64,000 nt of DNA, taken from NCBI GenBank assembly GCA_017621755.1, contig JAGASL010000025.1, positions 64,727-128,726 on the forward strand. The letters run 5' to 3'. The stretch's first letter is position 1. Each line of letters opens with the position of its first letter. This stretch comes from Clostridia bacterium (GTDB taxonomy: Bacteria > Bacillota > Clostridia > Oscillospirales > CAG-272). Below are positions 6 through 32,861 of this stretch, one piece after another. The notes under the pieces were generated by a model. The model saw only the letters and a program-made list of their open reading frames with translations. It was not told the DNA's origin and searched no databases. The position numbers and the translations under genes were made by a program.

Positions 6-3000
6 ATGAAGAGAACCAGGTTCATCCGCACAACAGCCTTCTTCCTTGCTGTGGTGATGCTTTGCGGTCTTTTTGGCGTGTCGGGCTCGGCCGCCGAAGC
101 GATCGGCAATGTTGTCAGCTCCACCAAAGAAGAACTTCTTGCGCTGTTGAACGCATCTTCCTATTCGGAGTACGATAAGAAAAACCCGGATACGAAGGGC
201 GTGGAAACGGTCGTGATCGACGCAAAGGACGTGTATTCCTATTCGGACGGTACGACTACTTACTATTACGATGCTGAAAGCTCGTCCTTCTACTCGCTCA
301 ACGAGGCTGGCGAAAAGGTAACCGCCAACGCCGATGAGCTGGCAGTAGCCTTTGGCGAGTACGGCGGCGTAAATGCGCTTCTTTCGCCTACCAGCGGCAC
401 CTTGACTTGGCAGGTCGAGATTCCTGCCAGCGGCCGCTACGGCGTAGAGATCGTGTACTATCCGCTTGGTGAAAGCTCCACGTCTGTAGAGCGTATGTTC
501 TACCTGGACGGCAAGGTTCCTTTCGCGCAGGCCAGATATCTGACCCTGTCGAAGAACTGGCGCTATGAGTATCCCACCGCAGAGGAGGGAACACTCGGCC
601 TGAACGGCGCGTACTTGGATGAGAACGGCCACGTGATCTTCCGTACCGACGTAAACGGCAACCAGCTTAAGCCTACGGCGGTGATCGACCCGAAGTGGAT
701 GACCTATCAGTTCTCGGATCCGGACGGCTTCTATCAGGGCGCGTTCGAATTCTATTTCGATAATGAGAACAATAAAACCGGCGGCCTGCATACGATCGCA
801 CTTTCCAGTACCCGTGAGGCTATGGCGATCCAGACGATCCGTGTGTTCCCGGTAGAGGAGATGCCCCGTTATGCCGACGTTCTTGCCTCTTATAAGGCAA
901 ACGGCTATCAGCCCGCCGGCAAGGATGCCAGCATTCGCATCGAGGCAGAGGCGCCTTACCGCGTTTCCGATACCTCGGTATATTCGGCCAATGACCGTAC
1001 CTCTGCCGTTACCTCGCCTAACTCGCCCGGCGCACAGCTGCAGAACGTGTTGGGTAGCAACAGCTACGATACGATCGGCCAGTGGGCAAGCTACCGCTTC
1101 ACCGTAACCGAGACCGGTCTTTACACCATCTCTGTTCGCTGCAAGCAGGATAAGCTGGCCGGTATGTATACCTCCCGCGCCCTTCGCTTGGCCGGTGGTA
1201 TTTACGGCGAGGAGCTGAGTGTTCCGTTTGCAGAGGCATACGATGCCCGCTTCAACTATGACAAGGCCTGGCAGATTGTCACATTGGGCGATGGCACGAG
1301 CGTTTTCCAGTTCTATTTTGAAGAAGGCGAGACCTACACGCTTTCTCTCGATGTCAGCCTGGGTACTCTTTCTGATATTATCGAGGGCGTTGAGCGGTCG
1401 CTCAGCGTCATCAACGATTGCTATCTTGATATTTTGAGGTTGACCGGCGCAGAGCCTGACGAATACCGCGACTATCGTTTTGGTCGCGTTATGCCGGCTA
1501 CGGTTCGTAACCTGCTGAAGGAGCATAAGAACCTTTCTGCGGTATCTGAGCAGCTTACCGCCCTGTGTGGCTCTAAGGGTGCGCACGTAGCGACCCTGGA
1601 TAAGGTTGCCTTCCTGCTGGACGTTATGGGCTCGGATGAGGATAAGATCGCCGAAAACCTGGACGATCTGAAGTCCTACATCGGTACGCTTGGTACCTGG
1701 CTGAACACCTCCAAGCAGCAGTCCCTGATGATGGACTACATCGTTGTCAGCGGCTCTGAGAATGCGACCTACGATGTGTCCTTTACCCCTGTGCTCGATG
1801 GTCAGTACAAGGTAGACGCCAACTTCTTCGAGGCTGCAGGCTTTGAAATTTCTTCCTTCTTTAATAGTTTCTTCGTAGATTACAACCAGATGGGTGTTAC
1901 CGTTACCGAAGAGGATATGGCTGATAGAACCCGCGTTGAGGTATGGCTTGCCACCGGTCGTGACCAGGCCAGCATCTGGCGTTCACTGGTTGACTCGACC
2001 TTCACCTCTACTGATGAGGGTGCCGGTATTGCCGTTGACCTGAAGCTGGTTGCCGGCGGTACGCTGCTTCCTTCGGTTCTGGCAAAGCAGGGCCCTGACG
2101 TTTTCGTAGGTCTGGATAGCGGTAGCGTTATCAACTACGCAATTCGTAGTGCTGTTCTCCCGCTGGACGATCACCCCGGCACCGAGGAGCACAAGGCCGA
2201 CCTGCAGGAAACGCTGCGGGACTTCAACGAAGCTACCCTGGTTCCTCTTAGCATGTATAACAAGATCTACGGTGTGCCCGAGACGGTTTCCTTCTCGATG
2301 ATGTTCTACCGTAAGGATGCGCTGGCTAACCTTGGTCTCGACGTTCCGCAGACCTGGGATGACCTGCTGACCTGCGTGCCTGTTCTGCAGTCCGCGAACA
2401 TGGAGATCGGTCTTTCCAGAGACTTCAACATGTTCCACTATCAGAGAGGCGGCGACCGTTGGACCTACCATGGTAGAGACTATAACGGTACCGCGTATGC
2501 CGATCTGATGGAGGATGACGCATTCTCTACTTATTTTGATTATATGCAGATCGCGTACGACGAGGACGTTGCTCTTGACGCGTTCCGCTACATGACTCGC
2601 TTCTACACCGACTACAGCTTCCCGGTTGCCTATGATGCTGCAAACCGTTTCCGTACCGGTGAGATGCCGATCGTAATTGCCGATGCCGTTGGTATGTACA
2701 ACCAGCTGACGGTATTCGCAACTGAAATTCGTGGTCTTTGGATGTTTACTAACATTCCTGGCACGCTCCGCTCGGATGGTACGATCTCCAGCGTAGCGAT
2801 CGCCGGTGTCAGCGCCGTTGTTATGATGAACGGTGTAGATGATGAGGCTGCTTCCTGGCGCTTCATGAAGTGGCAGGTAAGCCCGGATGTACAGGCTACC
2901 TACGGTAATGGCATGGTTGCCTTGATCGGCCCCTCTGCTAAGTATGCTACGGCAAACATGAAGGCCCTGTTCAAGATGTCTTGGACGACCGAGGAATATG

Positions 3001-3329
3001 AGAACCTGTACGGTCAGTTCAACAACCTGGCCACGATCCCGAACTACCCCGGTGCGTATATCATTGACCGTTATTTGAACTTCGCATTCCTGAACTCGTA
3101 CAATGACGGTGCTGAGCCTGTAGAGCAGCTGCAGGGCTACGTCAAGACGATCAATAAGGAAATTACCAGAAAGCGTCAGGAGTTCGAGCTTCCTGTGCTG
3201 GAGGATGGCGCCACCATTGATGATGCCATCGAGCAGTACCTTGATTACCTGGCAACGCTGGACGAAGCCGCGCTTGCGGAATTCGGTTTTTCTGACGCAA
3301 CGCTTTCCTATATTAAAAATCGTACTTGA
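6..3329 (+). CDS. Giant extracellular solute-binding protein (1107 aa). The ~600-aa N-terminal region has two CBM-like beta-sandwich modules and a helical segment. The C-terminal part is a family-1 sugar ABC substrate-binding domain.
   Basis: ORF track. N-terminal hydrophobic signal (FFLAVVMLCGLFGVSGSAAEA). IRIEAEA...WASYRFTVTETGLYTISVRCKQD segments resemble CBM6/35. C-terminal PDVFVGLD, YGVPETVSFSMMFYRKD and PQTWDDL motifs are typical of sugar SBPs. Confidence 0.75.
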   Translation: MKRTRFIRTTAFFLAVVMLCGLFGVSGSAAEAIGNVVSSTKEELLALLNASSYSEYDKKNPDTKGVETVVIDAKDVYSYSDGTTTYYYDAESSSFYSLNEAGEKVTANADELAVAFGEYGGVNALLSPTSGTLTWQVEIPASGRYGVEIVYYPLGESSTSVERMFYLDGKVPFAQARYLTLSKNWRYEYPTAEEGTLGLNGAYLDENGHVIFRTDVNGNQLKPTAVIDPKWMTYQFSDPDGFYQGAFEFYFDNENNKTGGLHTIALSSTREAMAIQTIRVFPVEEMPRYADVLASYKANGYQPAGKDASIRIEAEAPYRVSDTSVYSANDRTSAVTSPNSPGAQLQNVLGSNSYDTIGQWASYRFTVTETGLYTISVRCKQDKLAGMYTSRALRLAGGIYGEELSVPFAEAYDARFNYDKAWQIVTLGDGTSVFQFYFEEGETYTLSLDVSLGTLSDIIEGVERSLSVINDCYLDILRLTGAEPDEYRDYRFGRVMPATVRNLLKEHKNLSAVSEQLTALCGSKGAHVATLDKVAFLLDVMGSDEDKIAENLDDLKSYIGTLGTWLNTSKQQSLMMDYIVVSGSENATYDVSFTPVLDGQYKVDANFFEAAGFEISSFFNSFFVDYNQMGVTVTEEDMADRTRVEVWLATGRDQASIWRSLVDSTFTSTDEGAGIAVDLKLVAGGTLLPSVLAKQGPDVFVGLDSGSVINYAIRSAVLPLDDHPGTEEHKADLQETLRDFNEATLVPLSMYNKIYGVPETVSFSMMFYRKDALANLGLDVPQTWDDLLTCVPVLQSANMEIGLSRDFNMFHYQRGGDRWTYHGRDYNGTAYADLMEDDAFSTYFDYMQIAYDEDVALDAFRYMTRFYTDYSFPVAYDAANRFRTGEMPIVIADAVGMYNQLTVFATEIRGLWMFTNIPGTLRSDGTISSVAIAGVSAVVMMNGVDDEAASWRFMKWQVSPDVQATYGNGMVALIGPSAKYATANMKALFKMSWTTEEYENLYGQFNNLATIPNYPGAYIIDRYLNFAFLNSYNDGAEPVEQLQGYVKTINKEITRKRQEFELPVLEDGATIDDAIEQYLDYLATLDEAALAEFGFSDATLSYIKNRT

Positions 3330-3365
3330 GCCGTCAAGCAAAAATCTTTATAAGGAGTAAAACGA

Positions 3366-4313
3366 ATGTCACAGAATGAGGCGGTCACGCGCCCGGTAGC
3401 GCGCAAAGACATGACCAAATGGCAGTGGACATGGAAAGAGATGAAGCGCAACAAGACCGCGTATATCATGGTTATGCCCTTCATGTTGCTCTTCTTTGTG
3501 TTCACCGTTTTCCCGGTCGTATTCTCGATTTTCCTCAGCTTTACTGAGTTTAACCTGCTGGAATGGCCGAAGATGGTTGGCTTTGAAAACTATATTCGTC
3601 TGTTCCTCGATGATGAAATTTTCATTCTCGCATGTAAGAACACCCTGATCTTCGCCGCCATTACCGGCCCAGTTTCTTACCTGCTTTCCTTCCTGATCGC
3701 ATGGTTCATCAACGAGCTCCCGCCGAAGGTCCGCGCCGTTGTTACGCTGATCTTCTACGCGCCGTCTATCTCCGGCGGTGTTTACATGGTTTGGAGCATC
3801 CTGTTCTCCTCCGACTCTTACGGTTGGGTAAACGGTACGCTGATGAAGCTCGGCATTATCGACGCGCCGATCCTATGGTTCCAGGATGAAAACTACGTTA
3901 TGACGCTTTGCTGCGTTGTTGCACTGTGGACCTCGCTTGGTACGGCATTCCTGGCCTTCATCGCCGGCTTGCAGACCATTGATAAGAGCCTCTTCGAGGC
4001 TGCCGCGGTAGACGGTATTCGCAACCGCTGGCAGGAGCTGTGGTACATCACGCTGCCTACGATGCGCCCGCAGCTGATGTTCGGTGCTGTGCTTGCTATT
4101 ACCCAGTCCTTCGGCTTTGGCGGCGTTGTTACCGCCCTGGCTGGTATGCCCTCGGTCAACTACTGCGCACACACCATCATGCACCACCTGGATGACTATG
4201 GTGGTATGCGCTTTGAGGTAGGTTATTCCTCTACGATCGCGGTGGTTCTGTTCATCATCATGGTGGGCAGTAACATCATCATCAAGAAAGCACTTTCAAA
4301 GGTAGGACAATGA
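3366..4313 (+). CDS. Sugar ABC transporter permease (MalF/UgpA type), pair 1
   Basis: AAGGAG RBS 8 nt upstream. Multi-TM protein with EAA loop FEAAAVDGIRNRWQELWYITLPTMRP. Confidence 0.9.
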   Translation: MSQNEAVTRPVARKDMTKWQWTWKEMKRNKTAYIMVMPFMLLFFVFTVFPVVFSIFLSFTEFNLLEWPKMVGFENYIRLFLDDEIFILACKNTLIFAAITGPVSYLLSFLIAWFINELPPKVRAVVTLIFYAPSISGGVYMVWSILFSSDSYGWVNGTLMKLGIIDAPILWFQDENYVMTLCCVVALWTSLGTAFLAFIAGLQTIDKSLFEAAAVDGIRNRWQELWYITLPTMRPQLMFGAVLAITQSFGFGGVVTALAGMPSVNYCAHTIMHHLDDYGGMRFEVGYSSTIAVVLFIIMVGSNIIIKKALSKVGQ

Positions 4314-4314
4314 T

Positions 4315-5190
4315 ATGGCAAGAAGATTAAGAACAAGAAATCATAAAGTTGTCCTGAACCGTTCTGCAGGCGGTGACGCCGGTATTTCCTTCTTCCTGAT
4401 TCTGATGGGCGCCTTCATGTTCCTGCCGATGCTTTACATCATCATGCAGTCCTTGAAGCCGCTGGATGAATTGTGGATGTTCCCGCCGCGGTTCTACGTT
4501 ACCAACCCGACCCTTGAGAACTTTTCTGACCTGTTCGCGTTGATGAACACCTCTTGGGTGCCCTTCTCGCGTTACATCTTCAACACCGTTTTGATCACGG
4601 CTGCCGGTACCTTCGGCAACCTGATCCTGGCTTCGATGGCCGCCTACGCGCTCGCTAAGCTGAACTTCCCGGGCCGTAAGTGGATGTTTGAGATCATCGT
4701 GCTTTCTCTGATGTTCCACCAGACGGTTAACCAGGTTACGCACTTCATCATTCTGACCACGATGCGAATGGTCGATACCTACTTTGCTATCATCATTCCG
4801 GCTCTGGCAACCACCATGGGTCTGTACTTGATGAAGCAGTTTATGGAATCCTCGGTTTCTGATGCGGTGCTGGAGAGTGCCCGCCTGGATGGCGCCAGCG
4901 AGTTCAAGACCTTCCTGGTTATCGCCATGCCAATGGTTAAGCCTGCTTGGCTGACCCTGATCATTGAGTCCTTCAAGGGTCTGTGGAATACCGGTGCTTC
5001 GGTATACATTCAGTCTGAGCAGCTGAAGACCTTTAACTACGCTATCCAGCAGATCGTTAACGGTGGTGTAGCCCGTGCCGGTGCCGGTGCGGCTGCTACG
5101 GTCGTTATGATGATCGTGCCGATCACGGTGTTCGTTGTTTCGCAGAGTAACATCATTGAAACGATGGGCTCCAGTGGTATGAAAGACTAA
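4315..5190 (+). CDS. Carbohydrate ABC transporter permease (MalG/UgpE type), pair 1
   Basis: 1-nt gap to the previous gene. EAA loop LESARLDGASEFKTFLVIAMPMVKP. Confidence 0.9.
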   Translation: MARRLRTRNHKVVLNRSAGGDAGISFFLILMGAFMFLPMLYIIMQSLKPLDELWMFPPRFYVTNPTLENFSDLFALMNTSWVPFSRYIFNTVLITAAGTFGNLILASMAAYALAKLNFPGRKWMFEIIVLSLMFHQTVNQVTHFIILTTMRMVDTYFAIIIPALATTMGLYLMKQFMESSVSDAVLESARLDGASEFKTFLVIAMPMVKPAWLTLIIESFKGLWNTGASVYIQSEQLKTFNYAIQQIVNGGVARAGAGAAATVVMMIVPITVFVVSQSNIIETMGSSGMKD

Positions 5191-5204
5191 AAGGAGAGAA
5201 GAGA

Positions 5205-7340
5205 ATGAAAAAGAAAATAGTTACATTTACCCTTCTGCTCCTGTGCATGGTCACCCTGTTCGCGGCTGCAATGCCTGTTTCAGCACTCGAGCCGTATACC
5301 ACCTATACCTACTCGCCTGATGGCTTTGCGTTGAAGTCTCCCGCCGCCTACTCGCCTACCATGTCGGTAGACTACAAGACCGTAGGCCTTGAGACCAAGT
5401 GGGATGATGCCGCTGACATCTTCGTTGATGACGAGGATAAGGTCTATCTGGTAGATACGGCTAACAACCGTATCATCGTGATGACCCCCTTCTACAAGCT
5501 GGATTTCATCATCGATATCTTTGTTAACAGCCAGGGCGTACACGACTCCTTCGATAAGCCCGGCGGTGTGTTCGTAAACGAAGAGCACATCTACGTGTGC
5601 GATACGAACAATAGCCGTATCGTCATGTTTGACCGTGAGGGTAATTTTGAAAAGACCATCGAAAAGCCGGAATCGGCGCTGTTCGGTGAGGATTCCATTT
5701 ACCAGCCGGTTGCTATGGCTGTTGACCAATACGGCCGTATCTACGTGGTATCGCAGACTACCAACCAGGGCGTTATCGTCATGGATGAAAACGGTACCTT
5801 CAACGGCTTTATCGGTGCCCAGGCGGTTAACTACAACATTCTGGACATCATCTGGCGCCGCTTCCAGAGCAAGGAGCAGCGTAGAAAGACCTCCTCGTAT
5901 ATCCCGGTTTCCTTTAACAACATCTCTATTGATGAAGAGGGCTTCATCTTCGTAACCAACGATTCGATCGACGAGACCAGCCAGCTCGGCTCTATCAAGA
6001 GCAAGAGCGCCGCTTACTCGCCCGTTAAGAAGCTCAACTCGGCCGGTGACGAGATCATGAAGCGTAACGGCTTCTTCGATCCCGGTGGAGAGGTTGACAT
6101 CAAGCCGAAGCGTGATAGCAATCCGCATACCGGTGTTTCCCGTATTTCTGATGTTGCCATCGGCCCGGAGGGCACCTGGTCTATCGTAGACCCGAACAGA
6201 TGTAAGGTGTTCACCTACGATTCCAATGGTAACATGCTCTTCACCTTTGGTGACGAGGGTGAGCAGCTGGGTAACATTCGTAAGGGTGGCTCGCTTGCTT
6301 ACCAGGGCAACTACCTCCTCCTGCTTGACGTTGATAACGATACCTTTACGGTATACGAGCGTACCGAGTACGGCGACCTGCTGATCGAGGCTCTTGCCTG
6401 CGAAAATGACCGCCGTTACAATGACGCGATCGATTGCTGGAAGTCGGTGCTGCAGCGTAACAACAACTTTGATACCGCTTATATCGGTATCGGTAAGGCG
6501 CTGTACCGTGAATCGGATTATGAGGGCGCTATGGAGTATCTCCACGCCGCTTATGAAACGACCTATTATTCCAAGTCCTATCAGGAGCTGCGTAAGGTCT
6601 GGATCGCCGATTTCTTCGTGCTGATCCCGATTGTGATCGTTGTTCTTTGCGTTGCCTGGACCTTCTTTATGAAGTACGTTAAGCGCGTCAACTACGAGAC
6701 CGCTCACTCCCACGGGAAGAGAACCTACTGGCAGGAGCTTCTTTATTCCTTCCATCTGGTATTCCACCCCTTCGATGGCTTCTGGGATCTGAAGCATGAG
6801 AAGCGTGGCTCGATGCGCGCCGCCTTGACGATCCTTCTGATCGTTATCGTTGCTTTCTTCTATCAGGCTGTCGGTACCGGCTATCTGATGAATCCGGAAG
6901 AAAATTACTCTACGATCCTGGTGCAGGTAGCAGCCGTTACCGTACCGCTTCTGCTGTGGTCGGTTTCCAACTGGTGTCTGACTACGCTGTTTGACGGTGA
7001 AGGTAGCCTGAAGGATATTATTATCGCTTGCTGCTATGCACTTGCTCCCATGCCGCTCTTCCTGATTATTTCTACGCTGCTTTCTAATGTGGTAGCGCTG
7101 GAGGAGGCGCAGATCGTTTCGCTGCTTGTAACGATTTCCTTCGTTTGGGCTGCGTTCCTGCTCTTCTTTGGTATGATGGTAACGCATGATTACTCGTTGT
7201 TCAAGACGATCACCACCACCATAGGTACCGTGGTCGCTATGGCCGTTATCATGTTCGTTGCTGTTCTGTTCACAAGCCTGCTGGGTAAGATCCTGTCCTT
7301 CATTACGCAGATCTACACCGAGCTGTCTTACCGAGTCTAA
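5205..7340 (+). CDS. Signal peptide + NHL-like beta-propeller repeats + TPR + C-terminal Yip1-like polytopic membrane domain (711 aa)
   Basis: AGGAGA RBS. Repeats VYLVDTANNRIIVM, IYVCDTNNSRIVMFD, IYVVSQTTNQGVIVMD and CKVFTYDSNGNMLFTFG. TPR-like YNDAIDCWKSVLQRNNNFDTAYIGIGKALYRESDYEGAMEYL. About six hydrophobic helices after residue 468. Confidence 0.7.
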   Translation: MKKKIVTFTLLLLCMVTLFAAAMPVSALEPYTTYTYSPDGFALKSPAAYSPTMSVDYKTVGLETKWDDAADIFVDDEDKVYLVDTANNRIIVMTPFYKLDFIIDIFVNSQGVHDSFDKPGGVFVNEEHIYVCDTNNSRIVMFDREGNFEKTIEKPESALFGEDSIYQPVAMAVDQYGRIYVVSQTTNQGVIVMDENGTFNGFIGAQAVNYNILDIIWRRFQSKEQRRKTSSYIPVSFNNISIDEEGFIFVTNDSIDETSQLGSIKSKSAAYSPVKKLNSAGDEIMKRNGFFDPGGEVDIKPKRDSNPHTGVSRISDVAIGPEGTWSIVDPNRCKVFTYDSNGNMLFTFGDEGEQLGNIRKGGSLAYQGNYLLLLDVDNDTFTVYERTEYGDLLIEALACENDRRYNDAIDCWKSVLQRNNNFDTAYIGIGKALYRESDYEGAMEYLHAAYETTYYSKSYQELRKVWIADFFVLIPIVIVVLCVAWTFFMKYVKRVNYETAHSHGKRTYWQELLYSFHLVFHPFDGFWDLKHEKRGSMRAALTILLIVIVAFFYQAVGTGYLMNPEENYSTILVQVAAVTVPLLLWSVSNWCLTTLFDGEGSLKDIIIACCYALAPMPLFLIISTLLSNVVALEEAQIVSLLVTISFVWAAFLLFFGMMVTHDYSLFKTITTTIGTVVAMAVIMFVAVLFTSLLGKILSFITQIYTELSYRV

Positions 7341-7357
7341 GTATAGGAGATATGAGA

Positions 7358-10300
7358 ATGAAAACAAGAATTTTATCAATGATGCTTGCATTGTTGATGG
7401 CCTTTGGCTCTTTCGGTGTCTTCTGTACCGTTCCCGGTATTGTGGAGGCTGCTGACACAGCCACTGAGTCTGGCGATGCTGCCGGTGATACCACCGGCGG
7501 CGATGCCACCGGCGAGGAAACGCCGGATGAGGAAAAGGAGCCCTACGAGGATATCGTAAAGGCTGCTCTTCGCACCAACTATGCAAGCCCGCAGGATAAG
7601 ATCGATAGCGATGCGAATATGCGTCTGGCTGCTAAGTATGACGTATATGAGCTTTACGTGAACGATTTTACCGGTGAAATTGCCGTAAAGGATACTACCA
7701 CCGGTCAGATCCTGCTGTCGAACCCCTACAAGATCGAGGATAGTGAAACCATTCAGGTTTCTGATGCCGTTCGTGCAGAGCTGCTTTCGCAGATCCAGAT
7801 CGGCTTCCTTGAAAATGGTAACCATAAGGATTATTTCAGCTATACCGAGGCTGCCAGCCGTGGCCAGATCAAGGTAAAGAATATCAAGCAGGGTATCCGC
7901 GTTGAGTATGCCCTGGGCCGTGAGGATTCTAACTACCTCGCTCCCGGTAGTATTACCATCGAGCGTATGATCAGCGAGATCCTTAGCGTGATGAACCCTG
8001 ATCTTCCCAGCTACGATTGGGATGCGATCTTCGCAGCCGGCTCTGCCGCTACCTACGATCTGAAATCCTTCCTTTCTTACTACACCGAGATCAACCCCTT
8101 TGAGGTTGACGAGGCTGGTAACCGCGTTATGAGTGATACCGCTTATAACGACATGCTGAAGGCTTATCCCGTGCTGCAGAAGCTGCAAAAGGGCATTTAC
8201 GTCCGTTCTAAGTCTACCCCGCGTGATAAGCGTATGCTGGAAAACTACATCAAGACCTACTGCCCGAACTACACGTACGAGGAGATGGAAAAGGACCATG
8301 CAGAAACCGAGTATACCTCGGAGGAGCTGGATCCGCCGCTCTTCAAGGTAGCGCTGGAGTACACCCTGACCAAAGAGGGTCTTACCATCCGCCTGCCCGC
8401 AAACGGTATTCGCTTTGACTACTCGCTCTACACCCTGGAGTACATTACTCCCCTGCAGTACTTTGGTGCAGGCGATCTGACCAACGATGGCTACCTCTTC
8501 TATCCCGATGGCGGTGGTGCGATCTTCTATTATGAGGATCTTGCCAAGAAGGAATACGGTAGCACGACTGGTAAGGTATACGGTATCGACTATGCCTACC
8601 ACCAGATCTCTGGTGCACACCAGGAGACGATTCGCGTTCCCGTATTCGGTTCTGTTAGCACCTTAAATTCAACCGTGCAGACCACCGATGAGGAAGGGAA
8701 CGTGGTAGAGACCCCCGTTACCACCACCAGCGGCTATATGGCCATCCTGGAGGAGGGTGACGCCATGGCGAGCATCACGGCAAACTGGGGTGGTACCCGT
8801 TCTCCGTTCGCAACGGTATACACCACCTTCAACCCGCGTCCTCGCGATACTTACGACCTTTCCGGCAACAGCTCGTCCGGCGGCAGCTCTGCTTCCTCCT
8901 GGACGGTTGAATCCTCTCGTAAGTATACCGGCAGCTATAAGATGCGCATCTACATGCTCACCGATAAGCATGCCGCTACCGAAAGCACCTGCTTTGCCCC
9001 CACCTACGTTGGCATGGCAAACGCTTACAGACACTATCTGACCAATGTTGCCGGTGTTCTTTCGGCACTGGAGGTAGCAGATAATAAGAACATCCCGCTC
9101 TACATTGAAAGCTTCGGCACTGTGCCGGATATGGAAAGAATTCTTTCCGTTCCCGTAGACGTGGACGTTCCGTTGACCACCTTTGCTAATGTTCAGCAGA
9201 TGTATACCGATCTTTCCGAAAACGGTATTTCCAACATTCAGTTCAAGCTGACCGGCTTTGCCAATGAGGGTATGTATTACACCTATCCCAATCGCTTGAA
9301 GTGGATGAAGGAGGTTGGCGGCGATAACGGCTTTGCCGAGCTGCTGAAGGATGCCAATGCGAAGGGCTACGGCGTCTTCCCGGATTTCGATTTCATGTAC
9401 ATCAGAAACAGAAAGCTCTTTGACGGTATCAACCTGAAGTACGCCGCAGCGCGCACAATCGATAACCGTTATGCGAACCTCCGTGTATACGATGCAACCT
9501 ACCAGGAATTCGTTACCTTCTATCAGATCTGTGTAACGCCTGCCATGATTGAGGAGTATTACGAGAAGTTCTCCGGTAAGTTTATGAGCTTTGATCCGAT
9601 CGGTATTTCGGTTGGCTCTATGGGTAGCGATCTGAACTCCGACTTTGGTGATAAGTCGCCTACCAACCGCGATGAGGCGAAGAAGATCATTACCAGCATC
9701 TTCGCTCAGCTCAGCGAGGATTATAACGGCTCCGTTATGACCTCGGGCGGTAACATTTACGCGCTGGCCTACACCGAGCATCTGCTTGGTGCCGCCCTGG
9801 ATAGCTCGCGCTTTGCAAGCGCCAGCCGTTCCGTTCCGTTCGTTGGTATGGTTCTGCACGGCTACGTCAACTTTGCAGGCTCCGCCATCAATATGGCCGG
9901 TAATGTAAACTATCAGGTGCTGAAGGCTATTGAGAACGGTGCGGGTGTTTACTTCACCCTTTCCTATGATAATACCAGCCTGCTGAAGGAATTTGAGGAT
10001 CTGAGTGAATACTACTCGGTTAACTACAAAATCTGGGCTGGCGAGTTTGATGAAGAGGGCAACCTTGTTGAGCGCGGTGAGCTGTTTGACGTATACGATC
10101 GTGTCAACAACGCGATCGGTACGCTGCAGACCAAGCTGATCGTTGATCACCAGTTCCTGATCGGTGAGCGTGTTCCCACCGAGGCTGAGAAGGCACAGGA
10201 TGCCAAGGCTTACCAGGATGCGTGGGACGAGGCAGAAGCACTTGCTACCACCGCTGCACAGAAGGCACAGATCGCCGAGTATCGTGCAGCATACCTGGCC

Positions 10301-10591
10301 GGTCAGATGTCTGCCGGTGAGGTGATCGATGCCGTTGCTGATGAAGAGGCTATTCTCGCAGCGCTGGAGGCCGGCGGCGTTCTCGCTTCCGCCACCACCG
10401 AGTCGGAGGCCACTGCTGGTGACGAATACGAAAAGACAAAGTACTCGCTGGATGACGGCATGATCGTTATGGTCAGCTATGATGGCGGCACGTCCTTTGT
10501 TCTGAACTACAACATTTACACCATTCAGGTAAGGCTGAACGGCACCGTTTACACGATCGAGCCGTACGGCTATGCCAAGATCACTCAGTAA
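7358..10591 (+). CDS. Secreted DUF5696-like protein (1077 aa), possibly a glycoside-hydrolase-like TIM barrel
   Basis: ORF track gives 7352. The ATG at 7358 has better spacing (8 nt) to AGGAG at 7345-7349. Signal peptide MKTRILSMMLALLMAFGSFGVFCTVPGIVEA. The family call is from memory of similar sequences. Confidence 0.6.
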   Translation: MKTRILSMMLALLMAFGSFGVFCTVPGIVEAADTATESGDAAGDTTGGDATGEETPDEEKEPYEDIVKAALRTNYASPQDKIDSDANMRLAAKYDVYELYVNDFTGEIAVKDTTTGQILLSNPYKIEDSETIQVSDAVRAELLSQIQIGFLENGNHKDYFSYTEAASRGQIKVKNIKQGIRVEYALGREDSNYLAPGSITIERMISEILSVMNPDLPSYDWDAIFAAGSAATYDLKSFLSYYTEINPFEVDEAGNRVMSDTAYNDMLKAYPVLQKLQKGIYVRSKSTPRDKRMLENYIKTYCPNYTYEEMEKDHAETEYTSEELDPPLFKVALEYTLTKEGLTIRLPANGIRFDYSLYTLEYITPLQYFGAGDLTNDGYLFYPDGGGAIFYYEDLAKKEYGSTTGKVYGIDYAYHQISGAHQETIRVPVFGSVSTLNSTVQTTDEEGNVVETPVTTTSGYMAILEEGDAMASITANWGGTRSPFATVYTTFNPRPRDTYDLSGNSSSGGSSASSWTVESSRKYTGSYKMRIYMLTDKHAATESTCFAPTYVGMANAYRHYLTNVAGVLSALEVADNKNIPLYIESFGTVPDMERILSVPVDVDVPLTTFANVQQMYTDLSENGISNIQFKLTGFANEGMYYTYPNRLKWMKEVGGDNGFAELLKDANAKGYGVFPDFDFMYIRNRKLFDGINLKYAAARTIDNRYANLRVYDATYQEFVTFYQICVTPAMIEEYYEKFSGKFMSFDPIGISVGSMGSDLNSDFGDKSPTNRDEAKKIITSIFAQLSEDYNGSVMTSGGNIYALAYTEHLLGAALDSSRFASASRSVPFVGMVLHGYVNFAGSAINMAGNVNYQVLKAIENGAGVYFTLSYDNTSLLKEFEDLSEYYSVNYKIWAGEFDEEGNLVERGELFDVYDRVNNAIGTLQTKLIVDHQFLIGERVPTEAEKAQDAKAYQDAWDEAEALATTAAQKAQIAEYRAAYLAGQMSAGEVIDAVADEEAILAALEAGGVLASATTESEATAGDEYEKTKYSLDDGMIVMVSYDGGTSFVLNYNIYTIQVRLNGTVYTIEPYGYAKITQ

Positions 10592-10603
10592 GGAGGAGAG
10601 AAC

Positions 10604-11626
10604 ATGAATAATAACGTAACTGAAAAGAAGCTGTCTCTCTCTTCCGGAGAGAAGGGGATCGTCGGTCTGTGGAAGAAGGTTATTTCCTTCTTCACAGGCT
10701 CCGGCTCCCTCGAAAAGCGTAAGGCCAGAGCCGGTTGGGTATTCGTGCTCCCGTTCGTGATCGGTCTTGCTTTCATCTACATTCCCGTTATCATTGAATC
10801 CATGAAGCTCAGCTTCTGCTCGCTGCAGCCCGTTCGTCTGCCGAACGGCTCCGCTGGTGTCAAGCTGAATCCCGTTGGCTTTGCCAACTACTATGAGGCT
10901 CTGTTTGAGGATGTTGACTTTGTGCAGAAGCTGGTTGGCGGCGTACAGCAGCTGATCTTCGATGTTCCTGCCATCGTTATCTTCTCTCTGTTTGTAGCGG
11001 TTATCCTGAACCAGAAGATGCTGGGCCGTGCGGCCTTCCGTGCCATCTTCTTCGTTCCGGTTATCCTTTCCACCGGTCTGATCGATTCTATCTCGGTCAA
11101 CAACGGCGCGATTATCGACTCCACTTCAAGCGGTATTGATGATGGTACCGGCTCTAATGCATCTACTCAGATTATTGAAGCGGTGGATATCGAGCGATTG
11201 TTTGCCAACATGATGGTAGGTCAAGAGCTTGTTACGTACATTACAACGTTGGTGAATGATATTTACAATATCGTTAACCGCTCTGGTGTACAGATCCTGA
11301 TCTTCTTGGCCGGTCTGCAGTCGATCTCGCCCTCGATCTACGAGGCTTGTACGATCGATGGCGCTACCTCTTGGGAAACATTCTGGAAGATCACCTTCCC
11401 GATGATCAGCCCGATGATCTTAGTAAACGCGCTCTATACGATCATCGACTCGTTTACCAGTGCCTCGAATACGGTCATGTCCTACATCGACGGTATTTAT
11501 AACGATTCCAAAACAGTGTTGGCAACGTCAATGGCGTGGATTTATTTCGTGATCATTATGTTGATCATTGCCGCATTTATGGGTATTTTCTCAGCATACG
11601 TCTTCTACCAGAAGCGTGATGCCTAA
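10604..11626 (+). CDS. Sugar ABC transporter permease, pair 2 (MalF-like, with a long extracellular loop)
   Basis: AAGGAGG RBS. EAA loop YEACTIDGATSWETFWKITFPMISP. Ser/Thr/Gly-rich loop near residues 165-215. Confidence 0.85.
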   Translation: MNNNVTEKKLSLSSGEKGIVGLWKKVISFFTGSGSLEKRKARAGWVFVLPFVIGLAFIYIPVIIESMKLSFCSLQPVRLPNGSAGVKLNPVGFANYYEALFEDVDFVQKLVGGVQQLIFDVPAIVIFSLFVAVILNQKMLGRAAFRAIFFVPVILSTGLIDSISVNNGAIIDSTSSGIDDGTGSNASTQIIEAVDIERLFANMMVGQELVTYITTLVNDIYNIVNRSGVQILIFLAGLQSISPSIYEACTIDGATSWETFWKITFPMISPMILVNALYTIIDSFTSASNTVMSYIDGIYNDSKTVLATSMAWIYFVIIMLIIAAFMGIFSAYVFYQKRDA

Positions 11627-11643
11627 AGAAAGGAGGAGCATTC

Positions 11644-12681
11644 ATGGACGCGAATCACATTCCTGAACCCCAGGCCGCTTCCAAGGTCTTGAAAGAGACC
11701 AAGAATAAAATTCGTGTAGAATTTGAGCGTACCCCGCTTATGCAGCGCCTGAAGGCAAAGTTTCTCTCCTCCTTCTTCCTGCAGAAGGTCATTTGGTACA
11801 TCGTTCGTCTCGTTCTGCTGCTCGGTCTTGCATACGTTATTCTGTATCCGTTTATCGCAAAGATCTTCGGCTCCTTCATGGGCATGGATGACTTTGTAGA
11901 CGTTACCGTACGCTTGATTCCGAAGAACTGGACGCTGGATACGTATATCGCCATTATTATGGAGAATAACTATCTGCAGGCCTTCCTGAACACCGCCTTC
12001 CTTTCCTTGTGCTGTGCGTTGATTCAGACCCTGATCTGCTGCGTTATCGGCTACGGTATTGCAAAATTCCGTTTCCGTGGTAGCAAGCTGATCATGCTCT
12101 TCGTTGTGCTGACCATGATCATCCCGCACCGTACCATTCAGCTGGCGCTGTATCAGCATTTCCGGTATTTTGATATCTTCGGCCTGGTAAGCCTGATCAC
12201 GGGCGGCACCCTGCAGCTGACGAATACCGACGTGCCGCTGATGCTTCTGTCACTGACGGGTCTGGCATTCAAGAACGGTCTCTTCATCTTTATGATGCGT
12301 CAGTTCTTTGCCGGCGTGCCGGATGAGCTGGAGGAATCCGCTTACGTAGATGGTTCCGGCGTGTACAGAACCTTCCTGCAGATCATTCTGCCGCTGTCTG
12401 TACCGATGATGATCACCATCTTCCTGCTTTCCTTCTCTTGGCAGTGGACGGATAATTTCTATACCACGCTGTTCTACAGTGGTAGAAATGCTAAGTGGCT
12501 GATGCCGAATATCGTTTCGGTTCCGCCTTCTCTTGTAACCACCTATCCCGGCCAGGGCCTGTTCTACTCTGCGATCCATAATACCTGCGCGCTGCTCATT
12601 ATGGCGCCGCTGGTTATTATCTATCTCTTCTGTCAGAGATATCTGATTCAGGGTATCGAGCGCTCCGGTATCGTTGGTTAA
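11644..12681 (+). CDS. Carbohydrate ABC transporter permease, pair 2 (MalG-like)
   Basis: AGGAGG RBS. EAA loop EESAYVDGSGVYRTFLQIILPLSVP. Confidence 0.85.
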   Translation: MDANHIPEPQAASKVLKETKNKIRVEFERTPLMQRLKAKFLSSFFLQKVIWYIVRLVLLLGLAYVILYPFIAKIFGSFMGMDDFVDVTVRLIPKNWTLDTYIAIIMENNYLQAFLNTAFLSLCCALIQTLICCVIGYGIAKFRFRGSKLIMLFVVLTMIIPHRTIQLALYQHFRYFDIFGLVSLITGGTLQLTNTDVPLMLLSLTGLAFKNGLFIFMMRQFFAGVPDELEESAYVDGSGVYRTFLQIILPLSVPMMITIFLLSFSWQWTDNFYTTLFYSGRNAKWLMPNIVSVPPSLVTTYPGQGLFYSAIHNTCALLIMAPLVIIYLFCQRYLIQGIERSGIVG

Positions 12682-12688
12682 TGAAACC

Positions 12689-12725
12689 AAAAGACCTTGT
12701 CGCCTTTGGCGGCAAGGTCTTTTTA
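12689..12725 (+). terminator. Rho-independent terminator closing the seven-gene locus
   Basis: aaagaccttgtcgcc-tttg-gcggcaaggtcttt hairpin followed by a T run. Confidence 0.75.
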
Positions 12726-15401: not shown

Positions 15402-16163
15402 ATGGCCATGAAGAGTGGCAGTATTTCTGCAGAACGTATTTTGTCAAAGCTGGATGACTATCTACATCATAACGATTACGCAGCCGCCGAGCGGCATTTG
15501 CTTTACTGGCTGGCCGAGGCAGAGGCCTCTCTTGATGCGCGCACAGAGCTGCTTGTACGGAATGAGCTGATGGGGCTGTACCGCAAGCAGGGAAAAGAGC
15601 AAGAGGCGCTTTCTACCGTTTCTGCAGCCCTAAAAAAGATAGAAGCGCTGCAGATCGGGCATCAGGTCGGCGCGGCAACAACCTATCTCAATGGCGCAAC
15701 GGTGTATAAGGCCTTTTCCATGGCTGAGCAAGCGCTGCCCTTGTTTGAAAAGGCAAAAGAGGTCTATGAGCGCGAGCTGGCCGAGGGTGACGAGCGCCTT
15801 GGTGGGCTTTACAATAACATGGCGCTGGCGCTGGTCGATCTTGGACGCTTCCGCGAGGCAGAGGAGATGTACCGCCGGGCGATCGCCATTATGGAAAGAA
15901 CAGAGCATGGCGCCCTGGAGGTGGCGATCACGCATTTGAATATGGCCAGCGCGGCCGAGGCAGAGCACGGGCTGCTGGAGGCAGATGCGGCTATTACCGC
16001 GCATCTGCAGCAGGCAGAGGCGCTACTAGAGGGGCACCAAAAACGGGATGGATACTACGCCTTCGTGTGCGAAAAATGTGCTTCTGTTTTTGGTTATTAC
16101 GGGTATTTTCACTATGAAAATGAGTTGAAGGAGCGTGCAAAAAGGATCTATGAAGGGGCTTGA
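15402..16163 (+). CDS. TPR-repeat protein (253 aa)
   Basis: Repeated LGGLYNNMALALVDLGRFREAEEMYRRAIAI-type TPR helices. The alternative ATG at 15408 has better spacing to the RBS. Confidence 0.75.
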   Translation: MAMKSGSISAERILSKLDDYLHHNDYAAAERHLLYWLAEAEASLDARTELLVRNELMGLYRKQGKEQEALSTVSAALKKIEALQIGHQVGAATTYLNGATVYKAFSMAEQALPLFEKAKEVYERELAEGDERLGGLYNNMALALVDLGRFREAEEMYRRAIAIMERTEHGALEVAITHLNMASAAEAEHGLLEADAAITAHLQQAEALLEGHQKRDGYYAFVCEKCASVFGYYGYFHYENELKERAKRIYEGA

Positions 16164-17097
16164 GCTTTCACGCCAATTTTATCTTGCCTATGGTGCCCCT
16201 ATGCTCGAAGAGCAGTTTTCTGCCATCACGTCGCTGCTTGCGGTAGGCTTGGTCGGCAGCGGCTCGGAATGCTTTGGATATGATGACGAGTTGTCCCAAG
16301 ATCACGATTTTGAACCAGGCTTTTGCCTGTTTCTGCCCGGTGAGGACGTGATCAGCAGCCGCGAGGCCTTCGCCTTAGAGCGCGCCTATGCCAAGCTGCC
16401 AAAGGAGTTTATGGGCTACAAGCGTAGCCCGCTTAATCCCGTAGGCGGCAACCGCCACGGTGTCCTTCGCCTTTCTGATTTCTTGCGTGAAAGGCTAGGC
16501 AACGGGGATGGCTGTCTGGCACCCATGGATTGGTTCTACCTGCCGGAGCAAGCAGTGGCCGAGGTAACAAACGGCTGCATCTTTCGTGATGATGCCGGCA
16601 TATTTACCACCCTGCGTGAGGTGCTTGCCTACATGCCGGAGGACGTGCGGCTGAAAAAGCTGGCCGGCAATCTGCTGCTGATGGGGCAGGCAGGGCAGTA
16701 TAATTACAGCCGTTGCGTTGCCCGCGGCGAGCTTGGTGCTGCGCAGCTGGCTATGGCCGAATTTGTCAAGGCTGCCTTGCACGTGCTGTTTCTCTTAAAT
16801 AGGCGCTACATGCCGTATTATAAGTGGCGCTTCCGCGCCTTGCGCGAGTTGCCGCTTCTTTCCACGCTCGAGCAGCCGCTCACCTATTTGCTTGCCAGCG
16901 GAAACGGGGAGGCGGAGGCTACGCAAAAGACCGCCATGATCGAACACGTATGTGCCGAAATAATAACCGTGCTGCGAGAGCAGCATTTGACCGCGTATGC
17001 CGGCGGGGAAATGGAAGGGCATGCTTACGCGGTAAACGATTGCATTCAGGATGCGTCTATCCGCAATCTGCACGTGCTATATGCCGTCGATAACTAA
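16135..17097 (+). CDS. Pol-beta-superfamily nucleotidyltransferase-like protein with a DUF4037-like C-terminal domain
   Basis: GSGS-x11-DHD motif (residues 41-58). Overlaps the end of the TPR gene. Alternative start ATG at 16150. Confidence 0.65.
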   Translation: MQKGSMKGLELSRQFYLAYGAPMLEEQFSAITSLLAVGLVGSGSECFGYDDELSQDHDFEPGFCLFLPGEDVISSREAFALERAYAKLPKEFMGYKRSPLNPVGGNRHGVLRLSDFLRERLGNGDGCLAPMDWFYLPEQAVAEVTNGCIFRDDAGIFTTLREVLAYMPEDVRLKKLAGNLLLMGQAGQYNYSRCVARGELGAAQLAMAEFVKAALHVLFLLNRRYMPYYKWRFRALRELPLLSTLEQPLTYLLASGNGEAEATQKTAMIEHVCAEIITVLREQHLTAYAGGEMEGHAYAVNDCIQDASIRNLHVLYAVDN

Positions 17098-20788: not shown

Positions 20789-20871
20789 TGGTACGGGTAA
20801 CAGGAGTTGAACCTGCACGATTGCTCACCGGAACCTAAATCCGGCGCGTCTGCCAATTCCGCCATACCCGC
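20789..20871 (-). tRNA. tRNA-Leu (anticodon UAG), class II with a long variable arm and encoded CCA
   Basis: Manual fold: acceptor GCGGGTA, anticodon stem ccgga/tccgg with loop tt-TAG-gt, T arm GCAGG-TTCAACT-CCTGT, 3-prime end ACCA. Confidence 0.9.
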
Positions 20872-31124: not shown

Positions 31125-32861
31125 GTGAAGAAACTGCTTGTTTATTTGCGTGAATATAAAAAGGAAAGCATCCTTGGCCCCCTGTTTAAGCTGTGTGAGG
31201 CCTTGCTTGAGCTATTGGTGCCACTGGTGGTGGCTGCCATTGTTGATACGGGCATAGAAACGGGGGACCCCCCGTATGTGGTGCGCATGGCGCTTTTGCT
31301 TGTTGCGCTTGGCTTGGTTGGCCTGGGCTTTTCGGTCACCGCGCAGTATTTTGCTGCACGCGCCGCCGTTGGCTTTGTGGCGCGCCTGCGCCATGCGTTG
31401 ATGGCGCATATCGGTCGGCTCTCTTATAGCGAGCTGGATGCGCTTGGCCAGTCTACCATGATCACTCGTATGACCAGCGATATGAACCAGGTGCAGACCG
31501 GGCTGAATCTTACCCTGCGCCTTCTGCTTCGCTCGCCCTTTGTGGTGTTTGGCGCCATGATCATGGCCTACGTGGTAGAGCCGCAAACGGCGCTGGTGTT
31601 CGGCCTGACTATTCTGGTTCTTTCTATCGTGGTATTCGGCATCATGCTGCTGTGCATGCCGCTTTACAAGCGGGTGCAGACCCGGCTGGATGGCGTTTTG
31701 CGTCTGGTGCGCGAAAACCTGGGCGGCGCACGCGTGATCCGCGCCTTTAACCGTGAGGAGGCAGAAAGGGAGGGCTTTGCCGAGAAAAATGACGGGCTGA
31801 CCGTGGTGCAGCGGCGCGTTGGCCGCCTTTCGGCGCTTCTCAACCCGCTCACCTTTGTGATCATCAATGCCGCTATCATTTGGCTGATGCATATCGGTGC
31901 GCTGCAGGTAGAGCACGGCCTGCTGACACAGGGCGCTGTGATCGCGCTGTATAACTATATGTCTCAGATATTAGTCGAGCTGATCAAGCTGGCCGATCTG
32001 ATCATCACCATGACCAAAAGCGTGGCCTGCGGCAAGCGCATTGCCGCCGTGCTGGAAATAGAGCCGGAGCCTACCACCGGGGCGGATATTCCCGTGCTGG
32101 AGCCGGGCGAGCCGGCCGTTCGCCTCTCTCATGCCTCTCTTACCTATCGCGGTGCTGCCGCCCCCGCCGTTTCTGATGTCAGCTTAACGGTCATGCCGGG
32201 CGAGACGGTTGGTATTATCGGCGGCACAGGCTCGGGTAAATCCTCCCTCATCAGCCTGATCTACCGTGCCTACCCGGCAAGTGAAGGTGTGGTTGAGGTC
32301 TACGGGCAGGACGTTTCTACCTACGCGCTGGATGCTTTGCGCCGTGAGATCGGCCTTGTGCCGCAAAAGGCGCAGTTGTTCCGTGGCAGCATACGAGACA
32401 ATCTACGCGTTGGCAACAAGGATGCCACCGATGAAGACATGTGGCAGGCGTTAGAGAGCGCCTGCGCTGCCGATTTCGTGCGTGAAAAGGAAGGCGCGCT
32501 TTCCTATATGCTGGAGTCAAACGGGAAAAACCTTTCCGGTGGTCAGCGCCAGCGCTTGACCATTGCGCGTGCTCTGGTACGCCGACCGCGCATCCTGATC
32601 TTAGATGATAGCGCCTCAGCGCTTGACTACGCCACCGATGCGGCGCTTCGCCGCCATTTGCGCGAGCTGCCGTATAAGCCCACCGTGTTCATCGTGACCC
32701 AGCGCACCTCCTCGATCATGCAGGCAGATCAGATTCTCGTGCTTGATGATGGGCAGGTTGTTGGCTGCGGCCAGCACGAGGCGCTGCTGGAATCCTGCCC
32801 GGTCTACCGGGAGATCTATGAGTCACAATATAAGAAGGAGGAGACGAACCATGGCTGCTAA
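31125..32861 (+). CDS. ABC exporter half-transporter A (TMD-NBD) with a degenerate Walker B catalytic residue
   Basis: GTG start after AGGAGA. Walker A GGTGSGKSS, signature LSGGQRQR, Walker B ILILDDS (Asp instead of Glu). Confidence 0.9.
   Translation: MKKLLVYLREYKKESILGPLFKLCEALLELLVPLVVAAIVDTGIETGDPPYVVRMALLLVALGLVGLGFSVTAQYFAARAAVGFVARLRHALMAHIGRLSYSELDALGQSTMITRMTSDMNQVQTGLNLTLRLLLRSPFVVFGAMIMAYVVEPQTALVFGLTILVLSIVVFGIMLLCMPLYKRVQTRLDGVLRLVRENLGGARVIRAFNREEAEREGFAEKNDGLTVVQRRVGRLSALLNPLTFVIINAAIIWLMHIGALQVEHGLLTQGAVIALYNYMSQILVELIKLADLIITMTKSVACGKRIAAVLEIEPEPTTGADIPVLEPGEPAVRLSHASLTYRGAAAPAVSDVSLTVMPGETVGIIGGTGSGKSSLISLIYRAYPASEGVVEVYGQDVSTYALDALRREIGLVPQKAQLFRGSIRDNLRVGNKDATDEDMWQALESACAADFVREKEGALSYMLESNGKNLSGGQRQRLTIARALVRRPRILILDDSASALDYATDAALRRHLRELPYKPTVFIVTQRTSSIMQADQILVLDDGQVVGCGQHEALLESCPVYREIYESQYKKEETNHGC

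Follow-up and report, generated by a model that had tools for sequence, protein, structure and literature searches.

At the start of a 64,000-nucleotide stretch of DNA from a Clostridia bacterium (contig JAGASL010000025.1; the whole stretch is hereafter called the window) lies an operon of seven genes, g1–g7. It combines one giant solute-binding protein (SBP) and two pairs of CUT1-type ABC permeases with a membrane protein built of NHL, TPR and Yip1 domains and a secreted protein of the Pfam family DUF5696. On balance, we lean toward reading the locus as an ATPase-borrowing CUT1 apparatus for glycan capture and import that works with two translocators. The initial annotation had expected the seven-gene arrangement to recur in related genomes, and it does. 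We collected 81 genome loci with DUF5696 as the seed, of which 68 have enough flanking sequence and the other 13 end at contig ends; the order S-a-b-Y-D-A-B (SBP, permease pair 1, NHL-TPR-Yip1 protein, DUF5696 protein, permease pair 2) is found on one strand in 68/68 complete loci. An independent set of metagenome contigs seeded with g4 preserves the same order wherever there is room, leftward in 41/41 cases and rightward in 41/42. Chance juxtaposition of the seven genes is excluded by this conserved arrangement, and the locus is a single operon.

The seven open reading frames (ORFs) run co-directionally on the plus strand and span 6–12681, the window beginning 5 nt ahead of g1; every one of the same-strand genes named in the initial annotation was recovered. 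Counted from the first ATGs, the gaps measure 36, 1, 14, 11, 12 and 17 nt. The earlier gap list agrees in all values but the fourth, given as 17 nt, which is obtained when g5 starts at its second ATG (7358); we favor this start because of the spacing to the ribosome-binding site and because the gene caller chose it on the identical source contig. An AGGAG-like ribosome-binding site precedes every gene whose upstream sequence lies inside the window. The operon is closed by an intrinsic terminator at 12689–12725 on the plus strand, where a 16-bp hairpin (-27.2 kcal/mol) runs into TTTTT, and the intergenic gaps contain no terminator-like matches, in keeping with the earlier claim of one strong terminator and none internal. 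A consensus terminator scan neither listed this hairpin nor matched any of the gaps; its 18 terminator-like matches, against 13 +/- 3.8 in shuffles, are no commoner than in shuffled sequence. As for the fresh promoter said to follow the terminator, an extended -10 box, TGGTATAAT, was found by eye at ~12762, 3' of the terminator and ahead of a gene for an aldo/keto reductase with a 4Fe-4S domain, while the promoter scan made no call there because the -35 box is weak. Pfam assignments hold for all seven proteins (SBP_bac_8, four times BPD_transp_1, Yip1 with NHL and TPR, and DUF5696), and the two non-transporter proteins, g4 and g5, lie between g3 and g6, hence between the permease pairs as first described.

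Four of the seven products are ABC membrane subunits with intact EAA coupling loops, again as initially annotated. In pair 1, g2 (3366–4313) is a MalF/UgpA-type subunit with a BPD_transp_1 domain, the loop FEAAAVDG and matches to UgpA (1.6e-16) and GlcT (8.5e-16), and g3 (4315–5190) is a MalG/UgpE-type subunit with the loop LESARLDG and matches to UgpE (8.5e-20) and MalG (1.8e-14). Pair 2 consists of divergent members of the same two types: g6 (10604–11626; MalF/UgpA-type, loop YEACTIDG), with a BPD_transp_1 match at 3e-9, and g7 (11644–12681; MalG/UgpE-type, loop EESAYVDG), which matches MalG at 1e-16 and UgpE at 2e-15. All four permeases retain the core E-[AS]-x-x-[ILVM]-[DE]-G in 61/61 loci compared, and ESAY[IVL]DG occurs in 74/74 g7 homologues. 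Since g6 is only 26% identical to g2, and g7 26% identical to g3, the pairs are old paralogues, and a recent duplication was rejected. A transmembrane map places a hydrophilic insertion of ~65–100 aa, possibly extracytoplasmic, ahead of the EAA region of g6. The CUT1 heterodimer of MalF-like and MalG-like transmembrane domains (TMDs) with EAA loops is therefore present twice, and in place of the canonical unit of one SBP with two TMDs, all 68 complete loci carry one SBP with four.

That single SBP is encoded by g1 (6–3329), a secreted protein of 1107 aa in which Pfam SBP_bac_8 matches residues 690–979 (E 1e-15, 58.8 bits against a cutoff of 27). Its predicted layout comprises a signal peptide, a region of ~450 aa resembling the β-sandwiches of the carbohydrate-binding modules (CBMs) CBM35 and CBM6, a helical region, and a CUT1-type SBP domain at ~640–1060 that occupies the C-terminal 40%. 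The g1 family profile matches sugar SBPs in the PDB, with Listeria Lin1841 best (3e-19), and SBP_bac_1 or SBP_bac_8 is detected in 19/33 family members; the extracellular family-1 SBP that belongs to CUT1 importers is thus accounted for by g1. Sub-threshold matches in the N-terminal half, counted per family member, are to Golvesin_C (14/33), CBM_35 (9/33), GH115_C (3/33) and CBM_6 (1/33), which agrees with the initial picture of one giant CBM-decorated SBP. The giant size is kept across relatives, at 985–1290 aa. Lipobox-like motifs are rare among the homologues (8/68), and the signal peptide ends in A-x-A sites. For a Gram-positive SBP, it is uncommon to lack an obvious anchor.

Firmicute CUT1 importers often depend on a shared ATPase of the MsmK/MsmX kind that is encoded elsewhere. 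The initial annotation reported no nucleotide-binding subunit in the locus, and this was borne out over a wider range: no MalK/MsmK-type nucleotide-binding domain (NBD) was found in the operon, in the window or in the 10 kb upstream on the source contig, nor, by a motif scan of all ORFs, within +/-10 kb in the 81 genome loci, where the scan detected only seven ABC ATPases, all unrelated. The nucleotide-binding subunit of a CUT1 system is accordingly missing from the operon, the window and the flanks alike. Because all four permeases keep the EAA motif, we infer that an ATPase of the MalK/MsmK type, with its gene outside the locus, would power both translocators. Two adjacent ABC exporter half-transporters of fused TMD-NBD architecture (31125–34608, plus strand) and a separate 236-aa ABC ATPase (38930–39640, plus strand) also lie in the window; by size and architecture, none looks like a MalK/MsmK partner. 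Upstream, on the 129-kb source contig, the glutamyl-tRNA synthetase gene gltX ends 670 nt before g1, and no second SBP, NBD or regulator lies in the 10 kb upstream of g1 on that contig; a second SBP just ahead of the operon, which would have undercut the initial annotation, is therefore not there. The 670 nt consist of an AT-rich spacer and a GC-rich leader. Just 5' of the window (positions 9840–10000 of the source contig segment, L001), a promoter-like TTGACT...TAAGAT is followed by ~130 nt of this leader, which is probably structured. Neither the leader nor the upstream sequence has an Rfam match, nor does the window contain one for a regulatory RNA, and since the leader is common only to the closest relative (L003), it is not a conserved riboswitch.

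Of the three extracytoplasmic proteins (g1, g4 and g5), g4 (5205–7340) is the sole one with transmembrane helices. Behind its signal peptide, the predicted layout is an extracellular six-bladed NHL β-propeller (~30–387), a TPR segment (388–452), one transmembrane helix, a K/R-rich cytoplasmic segment with the invariant motif HPFDGFWDLKHEKRGS, and a Yip1 domain at 517–700 for which transmembrane prediction and the AlphaFold2 (AF2) model both give five helices. The Yip1 match (PF04893) has E 1e-15 and 58.4 bits (cutoff 28.6) at 517–684, and the NHL match is at 1.5e-7. Profile comparison with the PDB returns the NHL propellers of Pizza, PknD and TRIM71 together with TPR proteins. An enzyme-like fold for the propeller was rejected, as a Foldseek search with the AF2 model (pLDDT 79) found only generic NHL propellers (TRIM71, Brat, Pizza and the PknD sensor). 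The motifs on the predicted cytoplasmic face, HPFDGFWDLKHEKRGS, GEGS and HDYS, are 40–75% invariant against 19% for the propeller, and this high conservation hints at a conserved cytoplasmic partner. A lipobox-like motif is present in 12/71 homologues only, the signal peptide ending in A-x-A. Named database relatives of g4 are all called "YIP1 family protein" or "hypothetical protein" and come from metagenome-assembled genomes (MAGs).

The remaining protein, g5 (7352–10591; likely true start 7358), is a secreted protein that matches DUF5696 (PF18952) at E 6e-129. It comprises a signal peptide, an acidic linker, an N-terminal β-sandwich, a (β/α)8 barrel at ~575–940, a helical stalk (944–1007) and a conserved C-terminal β-sandwich (1032–1078). 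With the AF2 model (pLDDT 77, pTM 0.73), Foldseek ranks first the glycoside hydrolase (GH) family 129 enzyme DagB/ZgGH129, a 3,6-anhydro-D-galactosidase (8rzk/5opq; E 9e-23, TM 0.66–0.69 on the target), followed by NagBb, a GH129 α-N-acetylgalactosaminidase (5wzn; E 1e-16), then GH101 (1e-11), GH36 and GH31. The g5 model thus displays the three-domain fold with a (β/α)8 barrel akin to GH101 that is expected of GH129, at an identity to GH129 structures of ~10%. In Pfam, g5 has no match to Glyco_hydro_129 (PF11308) or Glyco_hydro_101 (PF12905) at E <= 0.01, and the g5 family profile reaches NagBb at only E 0.039 over 67 aa, with hhalign probabilities of 70–88%. On PF18952, a stretch of 67 aa taken from NagBb by itself reaches 35 bits; NagBb residues 210–628 score 53 bits (threshold 25.6) versus 26.9 on Glyco_hydro_129, and a close NagBb homologue from another locus (L082) scores 86.5 versus 32.4 bits. 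The sequence of this homologue was rebuilt from a frameshifted gene, and those of NagBb and DagB were also rebuilt before hhalign. In that locus the GH129 gene (3075–4970), broken by two frameshifts, adjoins an AraC-type regulator. As NagBb lies above the PF18952 threshold, Pfam "DUF5696" already includes a characterized GH family. The g5 clade belongs to the GH129 superfamily but is uncharacterized and catalytically divergent, so that the initial "DUF5696-like giant protein" is not of an unknown kind.

The divergence concerns the catalytic center. When g5 is aligned with NagBb (hhalign in greedy mode, probability 88%), D435 of NagBb falls on D760 and E478, which by its motif position we take to be the second catalytic residue, falls on G800. 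Over the 81 orthologues, position 760 is Asp in 50 (Thr in 11, Ala in 8, Glu in 5, others in 7), position 764, an alternative nucleophile candidate, is Asp in 68, position 800 is Gly in 79 and position 801 is Asn in all 81. The acid/base Glu that follows β5 in GH129 (NagBb E478, DagB E517) is therefore not kept in the g5 clade: DagB E517 aligns to G799 (Gly in 63/81), and an acidic residue two positions before the acid/base position is found in only 41/81. A candidate nucleophile Asp is present in only 62–84% of orthologues, according to the position taken, and lies in a loop in which the alignment is unreliable and AF2 pLDDT drops below 50 (760–767); phmmer, moreover, places NagBb D435 nine residues away from its published structural equivalence with DagB D486, and hhalign of g5 to DagB alone is non-significant (probability 0.2%). 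Among further residues, E586, S763, F765, P770, R773, H836, N847 and E861 are each found in 81/81 and D704 in 80/81. For the known enzymes, D435 and the second catalytic residue of NagBb are given in PMC5698469, which also reports that DagB, itself active, keeps the Asp alone of the two and relies on different acidic residues. From these alignments g5 could be either an enzyme with a shifted catalytic center or a non-catalytic glycan binder, and we lean slightly toward hydrolysis not being universally conserved in the clade.

Listed relatives of g5 reach 2545 aa through an Ala/Thr/Glu-rich helical insert, and no extra domains account for the added length. The helix-forming stretch that links the barrel to the C-terminal β-sandwich (window ~10181–10372) varies from tens to many hundreds of residues in homologues such as P0083 and P0080, and looks like a tunable stalk or spacer; the C-terminal β-sandwich stays conserved despite the long insert. 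As with g1 and g4, the signal peptide ends in A-x-A, and a lipobox-like motif is found in only 1/81 homologues.

To relate the accessory proteins to the permeases, we compared pairwise-distance matrices over 61 genomes (mirror-tree) with taxon bootstraps. Correlations are high among g4, g5, g6 and g7 (r 0.84–0.88) and among g1, g2 and g3 (r 0.72–0.79, with g1–g3 at 0.79); g5 correlates with g2 and g3 at only 0.54–0.56 (0.56 with g3), and g6 correlates at 0.88 with g5 versus 0.57 with g2. The SBP correlates with all others at 0.72–0.85. Partial correlations are 0.50 for g1–g3, 0.39 for g2–g3, 0.35 for g4–g5 and 0.34 for g5–g6, and the bootstraps back the assignments that g2 and g3 follow g1 over g5, that g6 follows g5 over g1 and that g4 follows pair 2 over pair 1. 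This indirect evidence suggests two functional modules, {g1, g2, g3} and {g4, g5, g6, g7}, with g1 also tracking the second.

The same covariation invites a reading in which g1 serves pair 1 only and g5, as a "pseudo-glycosidase", acts with g4 as the substrate receptor of pair 2 in place of a classical SBP. The initial annotation had raised a second importer with a non-canonical extracellular partner as one of two options, and that option gains indirect support from the grouping of g5 and g4 with pair 2 and of the SBP with pair 1. Beyond the tight covariation of g5 with g6, g7 and g4 (r 0.86–0.88) and the significantly better tracking of g1 than of g5 by g2 and g3, such a receptor would accord with the Glu-to-Gly exchange at the acid/base position and the inconstant nucleophile candidates at 760 and 764. 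It would also fit the persistence of at least ten other barrel residues in 81/81 orthologues and of the NagBb-like motifs AART-x-D-x-R and VP..V.H, as well as invariant residues in the C-terminal β-sandwich even past helical inserts of hundreds of residues. We nevertheless regard it as rather unlikely. The strong correlation of g1 with g4–g7 (0.78–0.85) is compatible with one SBP for both pairs. The alignment to GH129 at ~10% identity is unreliable exactly at the β4 loop where D435 and D486 come to lie nine residues apart, and an active relative, DagB, has a different catalytic constellation (PMC5698469). A fuller version, in which a degenerate g5 held by g4 delivers the ligand to a pair 2 devoid of an SBP-fold receptor and g4, through its conserved cytoplasmic face, recruits the borrowed ATPase or gates it, strikes us as unlikely; if true, it would constitute a new class of substrate-delivery module and the first import role assigned to a bacterial Yip1 protein. 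To our knowledge, every characterized type I ABC importer uses an SBP-fold receptor.

A more conventional possibility is an ordinary Gram-positive polysaccharide utilization locus (PUL), with two CUT1 importers sharing an SBP, g5 as an active extracellular exo-α-glycosidase of GH129 and g4 as a dispensable accessory; mechanistically, it would offer nothing new. Firmicute CUT1 systems do share MsmK-type ATPases, the GH129/GH101-like fold of g5 and the coverage of NagBb by Pfam DUF5696 would suit such a locus, and the bifidobacterial pathway with a surface GH101 and galacto-N-biose/lacto-N-biose (GNB/LNB) is a partial analogue (PMC8106489). The surroundings of the operon speak otherwise. The three nearest ORFs on each side in the 68 loci are mostly housekeeping genes, the commonest being iscS, nifU, a ROK kinase, mnmA and alaS; no further GH, catabolic gene or regulator recurs in or beside the locus in these genomes, an AraC-like ORF appearing in five loci only, so that the combination of transporter, regulator and GHs or catabolic genes that typifies a Gram-positive PUL is not found. 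Nor are g4 and g5 ever missing where there is room, with one possible exception, L134; the ratio of one SBP to four TMDs is fixed, the catalytic pair is not conserved, and g5 fails both Pfam GH models. We therefore find an ordinary PUL quite improbable. The initial annotation had allowed that its finding would fail if the DUF5696-like protein belonged to a characterized GH family within such a PUL; half of this came true, in that g5 is of the GH129 superfamily, and half did not, since its clade is divergent and the locus is no ordinary PUL.

Very unlikely, finally, is a role outside nutrient uptake, in envelope glycan turnover or recycling or in sensing: the housekeeping flanks, the missing regulator, the likeness of the g4 propeller to the extracellular sensor domain of PknD and the presence of dcw genes ~7–10 kb upstream of this operon would fit it, but the locus has no linked gene for a kinase, a response regulator or a cell-wall enzyme, the 5' leader is neither conserved nor matched in Rfam, and a CBM-decorated SBP with importer-type TMDs points to uptake of an external ligand. 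The dcw genes (L001 1–2735, opposite strand) are mraZ, an rsmH-like Methyltransf_5 gene, a small unannotated ORF and a gene for a penicillin-binding protein.

Taken together, an ATPase-borrowing CUT1 apparatus with two translocators would work as follows. Pairs g2 + g3 and g6 + g7 would form two complete membrane translocators of the MalFGK2-type, type I importer class. The ~120-kDa SBP g1, through its CBM35/6-like modules, would capture a glycan or oligosaccharide, and g5 would bind, and possibly trim, an α-linked sugar. Because g1 and g5 have cleavable-looking signal peptides and lack a lipid anchor, g4 may be the membrane-embedded scaffold that holds both at the translocators; its extracellular part would offer two protein-interaction modules, the NHL propeller and the TPR segment, for this role, and on the predicted cytoplasmic side its conserved surface could touch either the permeases or the ATPase that is borrowed. 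There is a precedent for a Yip1-domain protein working with an ABC transporter in YknW of the YknWXYZ system (PMC4887032). The substrate class (including "surface glycan" itself), the physical contacts, the ATPase partner and catalysis by g5 are the parts of this model that we infer.

Several observations weigh against it. The ATPase partner was not found in a view of the genome that spans 64 kb plus flanks, and the housekeeping flanks, free of sugar-catabolic enzymes and of a regulator, are atypical of nutrient-acquisition loci. As the GH129 catalytic residues have no conserved equivalents in g5, there may be no "processing" step. The signal peptides were assessed as cleavable by eye, on the basis of A-x-A motifs, and mirror-tree correlations are indirect and can stem from shared rate classes instead of contact.

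The operon appears to be inherited vertically, as part of the core genome, throughout a large lineage of Clostridia that live uncultured in gut and rumen. A g5 relative is present in at least 516 genomes in a scan with one genome per species, nearly all of them from such uncultured Clostridia; the best 80 of these are all MAGs of Clostridia/Eubacteriales/Oscillospiraceae, from human, ruminant, chicken and rabbit guts. Among representative clusters formed at 50% identity, the DUF5696 profile as such matches 5605, and for 3045 of these E is <= 1e-30. Median identity to the window proteins is highest for pair 1 (72% for g2, 73% for g3), followed by pair 2 (60–61%), g4 (54%) and g1 and g5 (42% each). 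As a fixed core-genome operon, it probably has a basic nutritional or envelope function in a major, poorly understood part of the animal gut microbiota. The initial annotation had noted this gene set in other genomes without any functional study; literature searches indeed yielded no mention of DUF5696 or PF18952 and nothing relevant on a "YIP1 family protein" with ABC permeases or on four-permease systems.

A few observations stand apart. In L134 (4186–14183), the single departure from the conserved order, the strand switches after a-b-Y to unrelated genes instead of D-A-B; either a chimeric metagenome contig or a true split of the operon may be behind this. Seemingly duplicated SBP, DUF5696 and permease genes ("SS", "DD", "BB") in metagenome loci proved to be frameshift-split ORFs. 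Elsewhere in the window, a single tRNA-Leu (20789–20871, minus strand) is the sole Rfam or ARAGORN match, and genes for a TPR_12 protein and a DUF4037 protein (15402–17097, plus strand), downstream of an AzlC-like branched-chain amino-acid exporter gene, appear unrelated to the operon.

The ingredients of the operon (a CUT1 importer, the GH129 superfamily and a Yip1 accessory) are known; new, and undescribed in the searchable literature, are their fixed combination in seven genes, the 1:4 stoichiometry, a giant SBP that has no anchor and a GH129-like partner that is catalytically divergent. Like the CUT1 systems (TC 3.A.1.1) MalEFGK2, UgpBAEC and MsmEFGK, the locus has a family-1 SBP domain and MalF/UgpA- and MalG/UgpE-like TMDs with EAA loops. 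Unlike them, it has two TMD pairs per SBP, a ratio that is constant over hundreds of species, an SBP of about three times normal size with CBM-like modules and no conserved lipobox, two extra obligatory genes (g4 and g5) between the pairs, and no linked regulator. With GH129/GH101 (NagBb 5wzn; DagB/ZgGH129 5opq/8rzk), g5 shares the predicted succession of β-sandwich, (β/α)8 barrel and β-sandwich, the motifs LTTF...GG..G, AART-x-D-x-R and VP...V-H of GH129, and the PF18952 model that also captures NagBb. It departs from GH129 in its ~10% identity, in the missing Glyco_hydro_129/101 match, in the Gly at the acid/base position and in nucleophile candidates that are not invariant, and also in being secreted, with an acidic linker and a helical stalk of variable length, and always encoded inside an ABC operon.

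For g4, the nearest parallel is Bacillus YknW (YknWXYZ), likewise a bacterial Yip1-domain polytopic membrane protein tied genetically and functionally to an ABC transporter; YknW, which is without a large ectodomain, partners a MacB-type exporter (YknYZ) that works with a membrane-fusion protein (YknX). In contrast, the neighbors of g4 are TMDs of type I importers, and its part outside the membrane consists of an NHL propeller and TPR segment; neither membrane-fusion protein nor MacB-type genes occur in the operon or its compared loci. With PknD, g4 has in common a six-bladed NHL propeller outside a Gram-positive membrane on a membrane-anchored protein; it differs in having no kinase domain and, as its membrane part, a five-helix Yip1 bundle. 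The bifidobacterial mucin O-glycan route uses a single canonical importer of one SBP and two TMDs. In that route, as proposed here, an extracellular protein of the GH101/GH129 superfamily (the surface GH101 EngBF, which leads to GNB/LNB) acts upstream of uptake; there, however, the enzyme is demonstrably catalytic and separately encoded, and cytoplasmic catabolic genes belong to the pathway (PMC8106489). For annotators and CAZy curators, the relationship offers a lead: "DUF5696" annotations hide a kinship to GH129, and the Pfam name should be read as GH129-related. Relative to Gram-positive sugar ABC importers, the operon breaks three habits, namely that each TMD pair comes with its own SBP, that the SBP has a lipid anchor, and that a regulator and enzymes are linked; it also associates an importer with a Yip1 protein and with one derived from GH129.

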